DNA of 64,000 nt, taken from IMG/VR virus record IMGVR_UViG_2541047938_000006; one strand, 5' to 3'. Position 1 is the first letter of the stretch, and the number at the start of each line of letters is the position of its first letter. The DNA is from a virus. Lineage: Duplodnaviria; Heunggongvirae; Uroviricota; Caudoviricetes. Positions 35,501 to 41,500 of the stretch are shown here, piece by piece. The position numbers are program-made.

Positions 35501-38500
35501 CGGATATGTTTGGTGACCGGGTCGATCACGGCGGCAGTATCAATATTCTGACCTCTCACCGCCCTTCACCGCTGGCAAAGGGAAACCCGTCGCACAGCAA
35601 TCTTGTCCAGATCGAAAAGGTTTAAGGAGTAGCCCATGACCACACAATATGGATTTTTTATCGATTCCAGCCGCTGTACTGGCTGTAAAACCTGCGAACT
35701 GGCGTGCAAAGATTTTAAAGTTGGTTACGTATCGTTTAAAATCAATTAGATAGCCCGTCATTTCTGCGCTCACACGTCCCAACATTGAAAAACATGCAAA
35801 GCTTTGTAAGCCGATGCAAAGCTTTGTGTGTCTCACTTTTGTCCCAATACCAATCCGAATCCACCCTTTGTCATCATTGAGAAATGGCAAGGAAGAAAAG
35901 GATGTTACTGCACGATTTGACAAATCCGCCAGAGCTATCGCATACTGATCGCACTGAACAAATAAGCGGTCTCCGCACCCGATAGCTTTGCGGCTTTTTT
36001 ATGCCTGCAATTTGGCATAGTTACATCCGTACAAAGGTCGGGTGGAGAGGCGTAATACAACACCCGCAAGGGGAATATGCCCAGAGCTTCTTATTTGGCT
36101 CAGTTGACACCCGACCGCCAGCTACTAACTGGCGGTTATAAACTAAACAAATAAGGAGGTCATCATGACCAGTCAACTCATCCCCGTATTCAACGGTTCT
36201 ATCTCAAACCAAGCAGCCCTTCTATGCAATGCTCGCAATCTACACGCTTTCCTTGGGGTTGGTAAACGCTTTGCATCGTGGATAACAGAACGTATTGCTG
36301 AATATGGTTTCGTTGAAAATCAGGACTATATGATTGCTTCCCAAATTCGGGAAGCAAAAGGTAGAGGCGGTCACAACCGCAAGGAATACCACCTCACCCT
36401 CGACACAGCCAAAGAGCTTGCGATGGTTGAACGTAACGAAAAAGGTCGCCAGATCCGCCGCTACTTCATCGAGTGCGAAAAGAAACTTCGCAACATTCAG
36501 CCAGTACAAGCAGAACCACAGCCGCAATTCACAGCCGAGGAAATCATCCTCCTTTGCTACATGCAGCTCTGGATGGAAAAAGCCCAGGACCTCAGCAAAC
36601 ACCTGTATCCCATCATGAAAGAGCTGAACTCCTCATACACGAACAAGCTGTATGACATTGCGTTTGAGACCATCTACATGGTGACGAAGAACAGAGATGC
36701 GTTACTGAGGGAAGTAACACGTCTCGACATGTCAAGTTCCGTTATCCAGCGGGCCATGCCAATGCTGAAAAGCCTGCGGGCAAGACAATTTGAATTCTGA
36801 AACCAAAGGAGCTTCGGCTCCTTTTTTCATGCCTGAACGACAACGCCGCTGAAATCGAAGAGTTAATACAATAAAGAGAAGAGCTCAGTACATTAGATAA
36901 ACATTTTTTATCATTATCTCATTGCCTTTATTCAAAAAAATAGTTACATAACGTTACTAGGTAAAATGCAAACCCTCGCTATTTTTATCAGATTGTATGC
37001 CGGTAACTATAACAAAAATCAGAACTGGAGAAGATGTTTTGTCAGCAGCCATTCACCGCATTGAATGGTTGTTTGAAACATTCTCTTCTGTATGTTTATC
37101 TTTTTCTGGCGGTAAAGATTCCACTGTACTTTTCCATCTTGTAGCCGAAGTGGCCTACAGGAAGAAACGTCGTTTTTCTGTATTGTTCATTGACTGGGAA
37201 GCCCAGTATCAATGCACCATTGATCATATACAGAAGATGCGGATGATGTACCAAGATGTAACAGATACCTTTTACTGGGTTGCACTTCCCCTGACGACAG
37301 TAAATGGTGTCTCGCAGTTTCAGCCTGAGTGGATATGCTGGGAGCCCGGTGTAGAGTGGGTTCGACAGCCACCGGAAGATGCTATTACTGATATGGCGTA
37401 TTTCCCCTTTTACCGCTACGCCATGACTTTTGAAGAATTTGTCCCAGCTTTTTCTTCCTGGTTCGCAAGTAACCAATGTAGCGTGGCAATACTGACTGGA
37501 GTCCGCGCGGATGAATCTCTTAACAGATTTATGGGACTGGTTTCCCAACGAAAACTGAGATATGCAGATGATAAACCCTGGACCACGGCGTCACCTGAAG
37601 GTTTTTACTACACCATGTATCCGCTGTATGACTGGAAAACCAACGATATCTGGGTATATAACGCTAAAACCTGTGCAATCTACAATCCTCTGTATGATTT
37701 GATGTACCGTGCAGGCATTCCTCTACGTAATATGCGTGTCTGTGAGCCTTTTGGCCCGGAACAGCGTAAGGGACTATGGCTTTATCATGTTCTGGAGCCA
37801 GAAACTTGGGCACGGATGTGTGAACGAGTATCTGGTGCTGCCAGTGGGGCTCTTTATGCCAATGAAAGCGGGGCCTATTTTGCCCTGCGTAAACGGATGT
37901 CAAAACCATCCCATCATACCTGGCGCAGCTATGCGTTCTTCCTGCTGGACGTAATGCCGGAAAGAACGGCTGAACACTACCGCAACAAGATAGCAGTCTA
38001 CCTGCGCTGGTATCAGAACCGGGGATTCCCGGATGATATCCCGGATGAACAGGAAAATGATCTGGGCTGCCGGGATGTTCCCTCCTGGCGACGTATTTGT
38101 AAGACTCTCATAAAGAATGATTTCTGGTGCCGAACGCTCTCCTTCAGCCCCAACAAACCCCGGCACTATGAACGTTACCTGCAGCGTATGAATGAAAGGA
38201 GGAAGGAATGGGGAATTCTGTGACACCAGAGGTGGAGGTGCTGAGCAAGATGATTCGACAGTACTTCAGTCAGGAACAATCTGAAGAGAAAACCATACAG
38301 GCCCTGAACCATCTCCGCTGCGTACTCCATGAGATCAGCCCCTTTGCTCAAGAACCAGTGGACTGTGTGCTGTGGGTAAAAGCGGATGAAATTGTCGCTA
38401 ACGATTATAATCCCAATGTCATGGCCCCAAGCGAAAAAAAATTACTGAAACAATCTCTGGAAAAAGACGGTTTTACTCAACCAATTGTTGTTTCGGAAGA

Positions 38501-41500
38501 AACAAGCCATTACCTGGTGGTGGATGGTTTTCATAGGCAGTTACTAGGTAGAAGAACAGTTACTGGAAAACGCCTGAAAGGCTGGCTACCAGTAACCTGT
38601 ATTAATCCAGACCGAAAGGGACAAACCTCACGTATTGCCGCGACTATCCGACATAACAGAGCCAGGGGGAAACACCAGATAACCTCAATGTCTGATATTG
38701 TCAGAGATCTTTCACGTCTTGGCTGGACTGATGAACGTATCGGAACAGAACTGGGGATGGACCAGGATGAAGTTCTGAGGTTAAAGCAGATTAGCGGGCT
38801 AACGGAGTTATTTCAGCAGGCAGATTTCAGCCCTGCATGGACTGTTACATAAAGTTAGGTTAGGCCTGTGGAGCCGGGGAATCGGAATTAAACATCTTCC
38901 CTCCCCGGTAAATACAAATAAGGGCTGAACATCATCCCGACTACCTCAGATCACCTAATAATATATCAAGATTATTTTGCGCATTAATGCTATTCGCCAT
39001 TACTGTTGCTGCTTCTGGCAACTTTCCAAGAGCAATAAATATATTCTTAAGGCTGATTGGAATTGATGAACCATGCGGATCGCGCCACTCACCGCAAATT
39101 CTGTGAGTTTCATCACAAAGCCTGAACGCATCCCAACCTCCATATTGACCAAAAATTATGTCCATTGACTCTATTTCTGCGGGCGATAACTCCCCCAGCT
39201 CATCAACAGAAGAAAATGTACGCCACATTTCAACCTTATGATCCGCTACATCAGATATCCATGATTCCCACGGACTGTACTCGTTTTCACTTCCATCCTT
39301 AACCAAAGAATATGTCTGCGATAAAACGGGTCCTTTGTTCATAGAGAAATAATGATCACCACTAATGGGAAAACCATACAACTCCATTGCTTTGCGGTCA
39401 GAGAGATACATCAGCTTAATGAAACGCATAGATCCGCCATGTTTTTTCAGCAAATACGCTGCCATTTACGCAACTTTTTCTTCATTAAACATAAATCGGC
39501 TCTCTGTCTCACATGAAATACTCTTTCTGACTATATGTTAATAGCTCCGGTTATTACAGGTTAATGTGTGTTTATTTCTTAATCAGCCCCGCACTTCCGT
39601 ACGGGGCCATTTCTGTTAATCCACTCCCACTTTTTTGTTGTACTCGCGGTTAAAGCGATCCACGGCAACCTTCATATCCCGCTCTACCGATTTCACCATC
39701 GCCGCCTGCTGCGCCAGACTGAGAGAACTGTCGGCATAAATGGCATCGCGCTGTTTGCGCAAATCCTTCAGTCTCTTCCGGGTATCCTGCATAAGCCCGT
39801 TCATCAACAATTTTCCGTTGTTCTCGTCAATGAACGCCGTTCTTTCTGCACCGGTCAGACTCTTCAGCTCTGCGTGATACTGCGCAACCTCTGTCATCCG
39901 GTCGTACATCTTCTGCTGGTCTGCATACGGCATCACCTCACCCGAAATTTTCCCCAGGAAGGGCACCTGCTGCTCCGGTATATCAATACCGTTCAGCGAT
40001 TTCACCGCCGCATCTGTGGTTTTGGAAATGAAGCGCCCTGTCCCTCCGGAGATATAGTCAATCCAGAATTTCAGCGATTCCGGTGTGATATCCACCGCGC
40101 CGGGACGATACTGGCTGCCACCTGAGAACGCATTCAGCCAGGATGCAAACGCCTTGTACGCCTCAGGCGTTGAACGTCTGCCCAGTTGGCTGTCCGGTTT
40201 CGGTGTGCCAAATGGCATGTTCTCCTGGTAAATCTGCGCCCCCATGAAGTTTTCATTCATGGCAAGGTTCGCAAACGGACGCAGAATGGTCGGCGCTGCA
40301 TTTTTCAGCAATGCCCCGGACAGTGTTTCCGACGTTTCACTGCCCACAGGACTGAATGCCCCCAGGATACCACCGACAACATTACCGGCAGCACGTGAAG
40401 CAGTCAGGTCGCCCGCTGCCACACCTTCAGCAGTATGCCCGAGCAGGAAGAAAACGTTGTACCCGTAAGGCAGAGGAATACTCCAGTACTCTCCGGCCTT
40501 GCCCCCGAACACCGATTTCATAATGACGAGGTTACGCTCTTTCACATGAGACGGCACCTTGTCATACCAGTTAACCCCGTCATCATCCTCCCCCGCAACA
40601 CTGCGGTTAAGCGAGCCAAGCAGATAACCCGCTCCCACAGCTGCAAGCGCGATTTTCTGCGGTACATTGAGATTCTTCCAGCGAAGGCGCTCCGGTAACG
40701 GCCCGTCGCCATTAAGATGTCCGAGCGTTCTCACCAGGTTTGCGGTCCCCTGAATGCTGGCGTTGGCAAACATATACAGCGAGTTCATCAGCGCTCCCTG
40801 CTCACCACGACGGTTAAAGTTCACCGTCATGTTTTTGGCAAGAGATGCCGCCTGCTGGCGTGACAAACCGGCATCACGGGCGTGTTTATAGGCAGAAAGA
40901 CGCAGAGCGTTTTCAACCGCGCCGTTGGCATCCTCGACCAGGTTCAGGAACGAATGCCATGCACCGATACTCTGGCCTTTCCATCCTCCCTTCGCCAGCG
41001 ATACAAGGCGATCCATTTCCTTCTGCTGGCCTTCAAGGTCACCCATGTTAAACCAGCCGGTTTTACCTCCATCCTCAACAAACTCTTTCCACACCTTCTG
41101 CCACTGCGCACCGTTGCCCGTGAGGGTTTTACCACGCAGACTGGCGTATACGGCAGACATGGCAGACCGGCTGTCTTTCACCACAGCCAGGGCGGATAAG
41201 TTATCCAGCCCTTTCAGTTTACCGTCGCTCCTTCCCTGCTCAGCCTTCAGGTTCATCACCGCCGTCTGCACGTCACGGATGAAGTTACTGACCAGAAATT
41301 CCGGGTTATACGACGTGTTCACCGTTGCCAGGAAACGGTTAACTTTCCCCAGCGTACGGATTACGGCGTTACTGGTTTCCGGCCCCATGTTCTTCATCGC
41401 ACGCATCAGGCGCGGGTCATGGAGTTTGATGTAGTAAGTTTTGCCGTCCTTTTTGGTGGTGAAGTAGCGATCCGCCATCATTGCCATAGGCACCGGACGT

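Follow-up and report, generated by a model that had tools for sequence, protein, structure and literature searches.

In this work we examine ibrA and ibrB, an overlapping gene pair carried by a Sepvirinae-type prophage within a stretch of 64,000 nucleotides (referred to throughout, at its full length, as the window) from the Caudoviricetes record IMGVR_UViG_2541047938_000006 of IMG/VR. The two products, a PP-loop enzyme and a ParB-like protein, are almost invariably encoded side by side, and in many viral genomes they lie within an early replication and recombination module. We tentatively favour, with rather less than even confidence, a reading in which IbrAB would be a phage-derived, DNA-targeted and ATP-dependent modifying module, with the activation of eib genes as a secondary effect. 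Judged by its sequence the pair is already known and annotated, and no new element has been discovered; what is added here are negative tests of membership in established systems, the finding that no cysteine is conserved family-wide, the near-universal pairing in phages, the replication-module context, a third component, and a contrast in frequency with eib.

Identity, coupling and pairing of ibrA and ibrB

The two genes and their junction are arranged in the window as follows:

36997 to 38223, + strand: ibrA, 408 aa; PAPS-reductase-family PP-loop domain, then C-terminal DUF3440
38208 to 38852, + strand: ibrB, 214 aa; N-terminal helices, ParB/Srx-type nucleotide-binding domain and C-terminal helix-turn-helix (HTH)-like region (predicted)
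38197 to 38223, + strand: ibrA/ibrB junction; AGGAGG at 38197-38202, ibrB ATG at 38208, ibrA stop TGA at 38221-38223

The positions of the open reading frames (ORFs) and the overlap of 16 nt (38208-38223) given in a preliminary description of this DNA are reproduced exactly by the ORF calls, and the two motifs that it named, SGGKDS in IbrA residues 37-42 and VVDGFHRQ in IbrB residues 104-111, can both be read in the sequence. Since an AGGAGG within the 3' end of ibrA stands only 5 nt ahead of the ibrB ATG and the genes overlap, their translational coupling is to be expected.

Both proteins are 100% identical to RefSeq entries. The 3.4-kb DNA stretch with ibrAB is 100% identical to E. coli SCU-104, in which RefSeq names the products 'phosphoadenosine phosphosulfate reductase' (PAPS reductase) and 'IbrB-like domain-containing protein', and the ibrAB DNA is 99.8% identical in Escherichia phage PhiR5_2, where the genes are entered as IbrA/IbrB; given these identities and existing names, ibrAB represents an already known entity. 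Homologues at E<=1e-5 number more than 6,800 for IbrA and 8,000 for IbrB, which, together with Pfam scores above cut-off and the near-identical DNA elsewhere, argues that these are not chance ORFs.

Pairing was assessed in a genomic set of 79 loci, drawn from one-genome-per-species enterobacterial assemblies, and in a viral set comprising the 80 best IMG/VR loci, which are metagenomic and 32-54% identical to IbrA; ORFs in both sets were called by a simple longest-ORF procedure. The ibrB gene lies directly after ibrA, overlapping or abutting it, in 79 of 79 enterobacterial loci, and a co-oriented IbrB-like gene is found within ~900 bp on either side of ibrA in 79 of the 80 best viral loci. A search for the IbrA family performed without a word index returned 1,811 clusters at 50% identity (E<=1e-3). 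No third conserved partner emerged among the enterobacterial loci, the next commonest neighbour being present in 27 of 79; the other recurrent neighbours (in at most 27 of 79 loci) belong to one common chromosomal neighbourhood, which is shared by about a third of the loci and may be the ybdNM locus. In K-12, ybdN and ybdM encode a PAPS reductase/DUF3440 protein followed by a ParB-like protein, a paralogous pair repressed by the LysR regulator YbdO/CitR (PMC9068703), and ybdO is itself regulated by H-NS (PMC9068703). YbdN/YbdM thus share with ibrAB both the two-domain pair and the gene order, but they are chromosomal core genes with a dedicated LysR repressor, whereas ibrAB is phage cargo.

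IbrA: a PP-loop protein without conserved cysteines

Two regions of IbrA are referred to below:

37105 to 37122, + strand: PP-loop SGGKDS, IbrA residues 37-42; ATP alpha/beta-phosphate binding motif
37714 to 38220, + strand: DUF3440 region of IbrA, residues ~240-408; helical in the model, with no structural neighbour

IbrA matches the Pfam families DUF3440 (PF11922) at 114.8 bits, against a cut-off of 25, and PAPS_reduct (PF01507) at 61.3 bits, against a cut-off of 22.5, as well as PHROG 2302 (5.8e-86), and the architecture of PAPS_reduct followed by DUF3440 recurs in all 120 homologues among the matches listed. Conservation was examined in an alignment with 73 representatives at 28-52% identity (74 sequences including IbrA). 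Invariant in this alignment are G39, K40, S42, D66, E68, D217 and Y233, and the PP-loop residues S37, G38 and D41 are conserved in at least 93% of the 74. No family-wide conserved cysteine was found among them: the cysteines of IbrA are kept in only 1-51%, and the one mostly-cysteine column (86%) is occupied by alanine in IbrA and its enterobacterial relatives.

An AlphaFold model of IbrA built from 41 homologues has a mean predicted local distance difference test (pLDDT) score of 78, rising above 90 across most of the N-terminal domain. Comparison of this model with the PDB by Foldseek retrieved CysH, adenosine phosphosulfate (APS) reductases, the PAPS domain of human FAD synthase, CysD and TtuA (E ~1e-6, probability 1.0); the top matches listed are PP-loop-fold proteins with ~165-180 aligned residues, consistent with the N-terminal domain. 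The same search gave no structural neighbour for DUF3440, the C-terminal part being helical and of lower confidence. IbrA therefore belongs to the PP-loop/PAPS-reductase-like superfamily, with its alpha/beta PP-loop fold. Among solved structures no close relative of either protein was found, the best sequence matches being FAD synthase for IbrA (E 1e-3) and ParB for IbrB (E 4e-3).

Within this superfamily, IbrA appears to form a separate branch, since it scores far under every curated NCBIfam cut-off (CysD, 33.9 against 195; CysH NF002537, 32.9 against 154; TilS_N, 22 against 93.6). The possibility that it is a CysH-type PAPS/APS reductase was rejected on the NF002537 score, on that of TIGR02057 (31.2 against 254), and on the lack of a family-wide catalytic C-terminal cysteine (ECGLH). 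Compared with FAD synthase, CysD and the APS/PAPS reductases, IbrA adds the 170-residue DUF3440 and is without the catalytic C-terminal cysteine of CysH. Because there are no conserved cysteines and the DndC model fails (see below), sulfur-insertion chemistry is unlikely for IbrA. Our guess is that adenylyl transfer or AMP-activation with release of pyrophosphate would be the most economical chemistry, since it is what PP-loop folds have in common and what CysD and FAD synthase, the nearest structural relatives, carry out.

Long relatives of IbrA carry unannotated extensions, inserts and an intein-like element, and among them no fusion with IbrB, or with a catalytic domain of known type, was convincing. 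The relative P0358 (631 aa) bears an intein-like insert of ~250 residues in its PP-loop domain, with 'CTPDHRW' and a LAGLIDADG-like sequence, and other large inserts are present in P0345 and P0367.

IbrB: a ParB-like partner with an altered nucleotide-binding box

The following motifs and regions were located in IbrB:

38400 to 38417, + strand: NDYNPN, residues 65-70; counterpart of ParB box I, aligning to NPYQPR of ParB 4umk
38517 to 38540, + strand: VVDGFHRQ, residues 104-111; DGFHR replaces the ParB GERRxRA box, aligning to 'IAGERR' of 4umk
38643 to 38669, + strand: TIRHNRARG, residues 146-154; proposed counterpart of ParB box III (ENxxR)
38685 to 38801, + strand: C-terminal helices, residues ~160-198; HTH-like, presumed DNA-binding region

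The Pfam family ParB_N (PF02195) scores 18.9 bits against IbrB, under its cut-off of 26.3, yet it is the top Pfam match in 38 of the 38 family members scanned. PHROG 2159 'ParB-like partition protein' matches IbrB at 4.9e-91, the second-best PHROG match is to the ParB-domain portion of phrog_498, annotated as a DNA methyltransferase (E 7.9e-9), and the IbrB family profile matches H. pylori ParB 4umk (E 5e-4). In addition, PHROG 6831 'transcriptional regulator' covers residues 160-193 (E 7e-4). With 38 homologues (74-92% identity) as input, AlphaFold2 gave a poor model of IbrB (pLDDT 50), in which the highest values (67-78) fell in the helices at 161-170, 175-182 and 186-195. The top Foldseek matches of this model were ParB, Spo0J and KorB, with a non-significant E of 0.07; since the model is poor, we do not regard this fold search as meaningful.

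Across 78 phage homologues at 40-58% identity, at least 90% conservation was found for the N-x-YNPN motif (N65, Y67, N68, P69, N70), for D106, G107, F108, H109 and R110, for TIRHNRARG-x-H (T146 to G154), and for GM..E.LRL.Q..GL, an HTH-like element. The DGFHR motif can be likened to the DGQHR motif of DndB and to the GCHR motif of sulfiredoxin, a likeness with no model match behind it. Pocket residues this strictly conserved suggest that IbrB would have a working nucleotide-binding or catalytic site and would not be a mere DNA-binding scaffold. A canonical ParB role, as the CTPase of a ParABS system, was rejected: the GERRxRA box is replaced by DGFHR, and no parA-like neighbour recurs in the 79 genomic and 80 viral loci. 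Of the domain classes proposed in the preliminary description, the PP-loop of IbrA stands above Pfam cut-offs and IbrB can be retained as ParB/Srx-like with a DGxHR box, though with ParB_N sub-threshold and a non-significant fold match; the DGQHR class as such found no matching model.

Phage context and a third protein

In the 80 viral loci, the recurrent neighbours of ibrAB encode SNF2 and DEAD-box helicases, SSB, annealing proteins of the Erf/Sak type, NinG, primase-helicase, cytosine methyltransferase (Dcm) and GNAT proteins, which together constitute an early replication/recombination module. Relatives of IbrA were found in at least 220 GenBank phage records, mostly from phages of Flavobacterium, Mycobacterium, Streptococcus, Arthrobacter and Bacillus; phages of Microcystis, Lactobacillus and Faecalibacterium are among them too, so that the hosts span several phyla. 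The pair as such is carried by cultured phages of Streptococcus, Flavobacterium, Mycobacterium, Microcystis, Lactobacillus and Faecalibacterium. In Streptococcus phage PY1, for example, the overlapping pair lies between helicase genes and the remaining replication module. The F. columnare phage FCL-2, another carrier of the pair, possesses no integrase and no repressor (PMC4541368). Given that phages unable to lysogenise keep ibrAB, neither host defence nor the regulation of eib is likely to have been its ancestral function.

An extra protein of ~125-150 aa accompanies the pair in 52 of the 80 viral loci, either free-standing beside ibrA or fused to the C-terminus of IbrB; the fused form of ~380 aa corresponds to the full length of PHROG 2159. 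Examples from the viral loci (numbered L084-L163) are:

L108, 5552-5974: third protein, free-standing
L092, 1991-2362: third protein, free-standing
L116, 2721-3848: third protein, fused to IbrB

Its consensus reads ..RIYH.Y..WE.Y..GMY...W..SCEH.LTN...NR.AW.GQAACC.., and it gave no match in Pfam, PHROG or the PDB. The protein is missing from the window and from all enterobacterial loci examined, and E. coli ibrAB is thus the minimal two-gene form of the module.

Relation to eib and distribution in E. coli

The prophage that carries ibrAB also carries an eib-like gene:

57191 to 58651, - strand: eibE-like trimeric autotransporter gene, 486 aa; YadA_head and YadA_anchor domains

Over its full length the product is 85% identical to EibE, 80% to EibD and 73% to EibC of ECOR-9, and the gene starts 18.3 kb past ibrB, in agreement with the Eib-like gene that the preliminary description had placed about 19 kb away. 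The counterpart gene in PhiR5_2 and SCU-104 encodes a shorter, diverged YadA-anchor protein of 419 aa.

Activation of eib by IbrAB is the sole phenotype reported, as far as Sandt et al. 2002 is cited in PMC7649339. A biochemical function for IbrAB, YbdNM, DUF3440 or a PAPS reductase-ParB pair was not found in the literature searched, in which one transcriptome paper (PMC9068703) deals with the K-12 paralogues ybdNM; this agrees with the earlier statement that IbrAB is known only as an activator of eib. The effect on eib was reportedly found by Sandt, Hopper and Hill in 2002 to need both ibrA and ibrB. The IbrAB island of ECOR-9 is said, from the same work, to hold overlapping ibrA-ibrB by phage antirepressor genes, with Stx-phage-like sequence, in the ynf region at about min 35.8 of the K-12 map. 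That island shares with the window the same named genes, and the eib genes of the ECOR-9 prophages are the closest relatives of the window's eib-like gene; going by its description, it differs in that the 'island' is here the att-proximal end of a complete Sepvirinae-type prophage with an eibE-like gene of its own.

Pairs resembling ibrAB (at least 80% of the query, mostly at ~84% identity) occur in 1,865 of 5,426 complete E. coli genomes (34%), with O157:H7, O104:H4, APEC O1 and Nissle 1917 among the carriers, whereas eib-like genes occur in 54 (1%), the pair thus being ~35 times commoner. This frequency excludes eib activation as what maintains the ibrAB family. The phage allele itself (at least 98% identity, 19 genomes) is nevertheless enriched with eib, 7 of 19 genomes being eib-positive compared with 54 of 5,426 overall (Fisher p = 3e-10), which fits ECOR-9-like strains holding several Eib prophages. 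The co-occurrence with eib raised as a check in the preliminary description is borne out for the phage allele, as an enrichment.

Copies of ibrAB at ~84% identity were also observed in non-phage islands and plasmids: in O157:H7 beside a PerC-family regulator and the cah autotransporter, in Nissle 1917, and on plasmids of Shiga toxin-producing E. coli (STEC) amid insertion sequence (IS) remnants and fragments of autotransporter genes. Proximity to autotransporter adhesin genes recurs across the O157:H7 and STEC plasmid copies.

Comparison with Dnd, Ssp and BREX

DndC, SspD and BrxP resemble PAPS reductases and DndB resembles ParB (PMC10853773, PMC12839542). A Dnd DNA-modification locus (SspD and BrxP being comparable) thus brings together the two superfamilies to which IbrA belongs and IbrB, with its DGxHR box, probably belongs. 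Membership was examined with profile hidden Markov models (HMMs). The DndC model TIGR03183 scores 17.8 bits against IbrA, compared with a cut-off of 290.4, and the PADLOC DndC models score 17.6-20.6 bits; no DndB or DGQHR model in NCBIfam or PADLOC matches IbrB, for which the only NCBIfam match is a weak one to Noc (22.7 bits against 315). PADLOC BrxP reaches 28 bits with IbrA, over residues 17-96 only, and PADLOC-DB v2 yielded nothing beyond these weak BrxP and DndC matches for IbrA and no match for IbrB, AntA or Panacea. Furthermore, DndC holds a 4Fe-4S cluster on three cysteines and uses a cysteine dyad for sulfur relay (PMC10853773), whereas IbrA lacks both the Fe-S and the relay cysteines, and no DndA/D/E or restriction partners accompany ibrAB. 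No cysteine desulfurase, DndD/E, SspBC, PglZ/BrxC, other BREX gene or restriction nuclease recurs in the 79 genomic and 80 viral loci, and no Dnd, Ssp or BREX gene is present in the annotation of the window. DndB, moreover, has been described as a regulator that roughly half of the Dnd systems possess and the others do without (PMC10853773), in contrast to IbrB, the obligate and translationally coupled partner of IbrA.

By HMM scores, cysteine conservation and neighbourhood, ibrAB is excluded from the Dnd, Ssp and BREX systems, and the analogy drawn in the preliminary description to DndC-like and DndB-like proteins survives at the level of the superfamilies but not as family membership. The anti-phage defence of the host that the same description had inferred is unlikely to be ancestral, in view of the location of ibrAB in the early replication/recombination region of many phages, FCL-2 included. 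PADLOC, for its part, showed no recognisable defence system.

Proposed function and alternatives

We prefer a DNA-modifying module because it would explain why the two genes are obligately paired, why both active sites are conserved and why the pair lies in phage replication modules, and because ParB-methylase fusions offer a precedent. The PP-loop identity of IbrA, the conserved motifs, the pairing and the genomic contexts are established by the observations presented here, and the ParB-like identity of IbrB is probable. It is plausible that the pair modifies DNA to the advantage of the phage itself; as a self-contained two-protein module of phage origin, IbrA and IbrB would interact physically and act upon nucleic acid, most likely DNA. 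IbrB would be the DNA-targeting, nucleoside triphosphate (NTP)-gated subunit, by virtue of its ParB/Srx-type pocket and HTH-like tail, and catalysis would fall to IbrA, which as a PP-loop enzyme from the PAPS-reductase/CysD/FAD-synthase branch would use ATP to adenylylate or AMP-activate its substrate, with release of pyrophosphate. Since no cysteine is conserved throughout the family, IbrA would not rely on a sulfur relay like that of DndC or CysH. Phages, lytic and temperate alike, would use the module early, alongside their replication and recombination genes, either to mark or protect phage DNA or to condition DNA transactions. In the E. coli prophage studied here it would have turned into stand-alone cargo behind its own AT-rich upstream region, and eib activation would arise downstream of the module's action on the lysogen's DNA or chromatin, perhaps because silencing is altered or late transcription is partly derepressed.

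Fusions of a ParB domain with a DNA adenine methylase have been described (PMC5512222) and, together with the phrog_498 match, serve as an earlier instance of a ParB domain joined with an enzyme that modifies DNA. Such ParB-methyltransferase fusions (of the Bce_0392 type; PHROG 498) tie a ParB/Srx domain to a DNA-modifying enzyme, as IbrAB would on this reading, but they do so with an S-adenosylmethionine-dependent methylase in one polypeptide, whereas IbrA is a separate, ATP-dependent PP-loop protein.

Several points weigh against this reading. IbrA contains no recognisable nucleic-acid-binding domain and its DUF3440 is without a structural neighbour, while its nearest structural relatives (FAD synthase, CysD and the APS/PAPS reductases) act on small molecules and not on polymers. 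The ParB assignment of IbrB draws on a sub-threshold Pfam match, PHROG similarity and motifs, accompanied by a low-confidence model, and DNA as the substrate is something that we infer. To our knowledge, no cultured phage carrying ibrAB has been reported to contain modified DNA. Finally, many E. coli copies of ibrAB reside on non-phage islands and plasmids, and the chromosomal ybdNM genes are under a LysR repressor; a regulatory or metabolic role in the host fits these copies at least as well.

A bolder extension, which as a whole we consider unlikely, is that IbrAB together with the ~140-aa third protein would constitute a widespread but hitherto unrecognised phage system for DNA modification, or for the adenylylation of DNA ends or nucleotides, with a new chemistry performed by a ParB-guided, cysteine-independent PP-loop enzyme. 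The E. coli copies (ybdNM and the island and plasmid ibrAB) would then be domesticated forms with an epigenetic or anti-silencing side effect that would explain eib activation.

Whichever reading applies, ibrAB is a widespread module that lends itself to experiment and has yet to be characterised; about one in three complete E. coli genomes carries a pair of this kind. If it modifies DNA or nucleotides, it would represent a new enzyme class for the biology of phage-host conflict, and would also account for a 20-year-old regulatory phenotype of immunoglobulin-binding virulence proteins; were it only a VirB-like regulator with an odd co-factor, its interest would be narrower. PhiR5_2, which is inducible and plates on K-12, offers a direct test system for ibrAB function.

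The first alternative, which we regard as unlikely though it ranks highest among the rivals, invokes the clamp and anti-silencing mechanism of VirB and KorB. IbrB would then be an NTP-gated clamp regulator of this kind that relieves the silencing of AT-rich acquired genes such as eib, and IbrA would assist as a co-activator, by providing or withdrawing a ligand or by locking the clamp, with no DNA modification involved. VirB of Shigella pINV and KorB of RK2 combine a ParB N-domain with an HTH and regulate horizontally acquired genes, as IbrB would on this view, and KorB is among the top, albeit non-significant, fold matches of IbrB, which possesses the HTH-like tail and the ParB boxes. The AT-rich region upstream of ibrA and the copies near autotransporter genes on STEC plasmids are further points in favour. 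The sole reported phenotype, moreover, is the activation of genes, for which both proteins are reportedly needed (Sandt 2002, as far as cited in PMC7649339); copies of ibrAB in virulence islands lie by a PerC-family regulator and are co-induced with it on epithelial contact (PMC7649339), and ybdNM is repressed by YbdO/CitR, whose gene is H-NS-regulated (PMC9068703). However, this explanation leaves unaccounted for both a strictly conserved PP-loop catalytic site that is always coupled to IbrB and the presence of ibrAB among the replication genes of lytic phages. IbrB also departs from VirB and KorB in that DGFHR replaces the GERRxRA CTP box of VirB, KorB and ParB, that it has no ParA/KorA-type partner, and that it is always paired with a PP-loop enzyme, and the ~35-fold excess of ibrAB-like pairs over eib-like genes (1865 versus 54 of 5426 genomes) also speaks against it.

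The structural neighbours of IbrA favour a second alternative, one that we hold to be improbable, in which the pair would act on small molecules or nucleotide pools. IbrA would adenylylate a small substrate or act on APS/PAPS-like sulfonucleotides, IbrB, with a ParB/Srx fold, would be a kinase or NTPase comparable to sulfiredoxin, SerK or SbnI, and the resulting metabolite or signal would alter expression indirectly or aid phage takeover. Deletion of ybdO in K-12 raises ybdN by log2 5.5 and ybdM by 2.5 (PMC9068703 Table 1), and the same data show increased expression of the CysB genes cysDNC, cysJIH, cysUWA and tcyP as well as of the flagellar regulon (PMC9068703). Derepression of ybdNM thus coincides with the induction of sulfate-assimilation genes, a correlation only, and may indicate that the IbrA family touches sulfur-nucleotide pools or may be unrelated; the shift of the cys regulon comes from one mutant transcriptome in which the flagellar regulon moves too. 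The HTH-like tail of IbrB would be superfluous in a metabolic kinase, there is no conserved cysteine for PAPS reduction, no transporter or other metabolic gene is conserved beside ibrAB in the 79 genomic and 80 viral loci, and the phage context is one of DNA metabolism.

More doubtful still is a role in RNA (tRNA) modification, with IbrA acting like TilS, TtcA, TtuA or ThiI and IbrB as a specificity factor, which would alter the translation of particular genes. The similarity of IbrA to these enzymes is weaker than to the PAPS-reductase/FAD-synthase branch, the conserved Fe-S cysteines of TtuA, TtcA and NcsA are not found, ParB/HTH partners bind DNA, and neither tRNA genes nor RNA-binding domains accompany ibrAB.

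Phosphorothioation of the Dnd/Ssp/BREX kind, or an anti-phage defence module benefiting the lysogen, is highly improbable, for the superfamily-level parallel (PMC10853773, PMC12839542), the weak PADLOC matches (BrxP, 28 bits; DndC, 20.6 bits) and a prophage accessory slot adjoining a Panacea gene face the DndC score of 17.8 against 290.4 bits, the missing DndB/DGQHR match and family-wide cysteine, the lack of any recurrent desulfurase, DndD/E, SspBC, PglZ/BrxC or restriction nuclease in 159 loci, the optional status of DndB compared with an obligate DndC partner (PMC10853773), and the occurrence of ibrAB in phages that cannot lysogenise.

Prophage setting and neighbouring genes

The prophage is of the Sepvirinae (933W) type, and ibrAB lies between its junction with ynfG (~35,720) and the late genes. 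On the host side, ynfF (33199-35625) comes before a remnant of ynfG, of which the first ~85 nt (from 35637) are left before the break at ~35,720; the same truncated 4Fe-4S gene (ynfG) is annotated by RefSeq in SCU-104. The genes that surround ibrAB are:

36165 to 36800, + strand: AntA/P22AR_C antirepressor gene, upstream of ibrA and co-oriented; Pfam AntA 92.4 bits, P22_AR_C 29.6 bits; PHROG 377 4.4e-98
36805 to 36996, + strand: upstream control region; terminator-like hairpin after antA, then AT-rich spacer with GC 0.32-0.34
38941 to 39465, - strand: SocA/Panacea-domain gene, convergent with ibrB; Pfam SocA_Panacea 70.7 bits
39616 to 47994, - strand: polyvalent protein gene, LPD38/LPD5/LPD1/MuF_C, 2792 aa

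The terminator-like hairpin occupies 36805-36827 (AAAGGAGC-TTCG-GCTCCTTT plus a T run), and a simple promoter scan gave no sigma-70 consensus upstream of ibrA. We suggest that ibrAB may have a promoter of its own, which is possibly H-NS-sensitive. Beyond the polyvalent gene lie lom and tail-fibre genes and then the eibE-like gene.

Within a 25-kb region, PhiR5_2 covers 88% at 94.6% identity and many Stx-converting Sepvirinae phages cover ~72%. Stx phage PA4 has different genes (ygiW, relF, eaA and others) between its antirepressor and polyvalent genes, so that the ibrAB slot can be regarded as a variable, att-proximal site for accessory cargo; the gene map and this comparison corroborate the accessory-block position, between the att junction and the structural genes, that had been described earlier.

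The prophage sits in ynfG of the ynfEFGH selenate/dimethyl sulfoxide (DMSO)-reductase operon, with antA and ibrAB co-oriented with the interrupted operon, and read-through from the anaerobically expressed ynf promoter into this end of the prophage is conceivable. The Panacea antitoxin-domain gene lies ~150 nt downstream of the polyvalent gene, and no toxin ORF of its own is evident beside it; its partner may be either an unrecognised small toxin or one of the domains of the polyvalent protein. The window contains in addition a second, unrelated lambdoid prophage remnant (1-25400), with an exonuclease-like ORF (21208-23715) and an integrase (24059-25354), adjoining rspB; the counterpart of this left remnant region in SCU-104 holds dicB, ydfD and YdaT-type genes. 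The ynfE gene (30715-33141 of the window) is intact here and split by an IS66 element in SCU-104 (12166-17042 of the SCU-104 stretch), and the eib region differs between the two as well, so that the window does not derive from SCU-104 itself.

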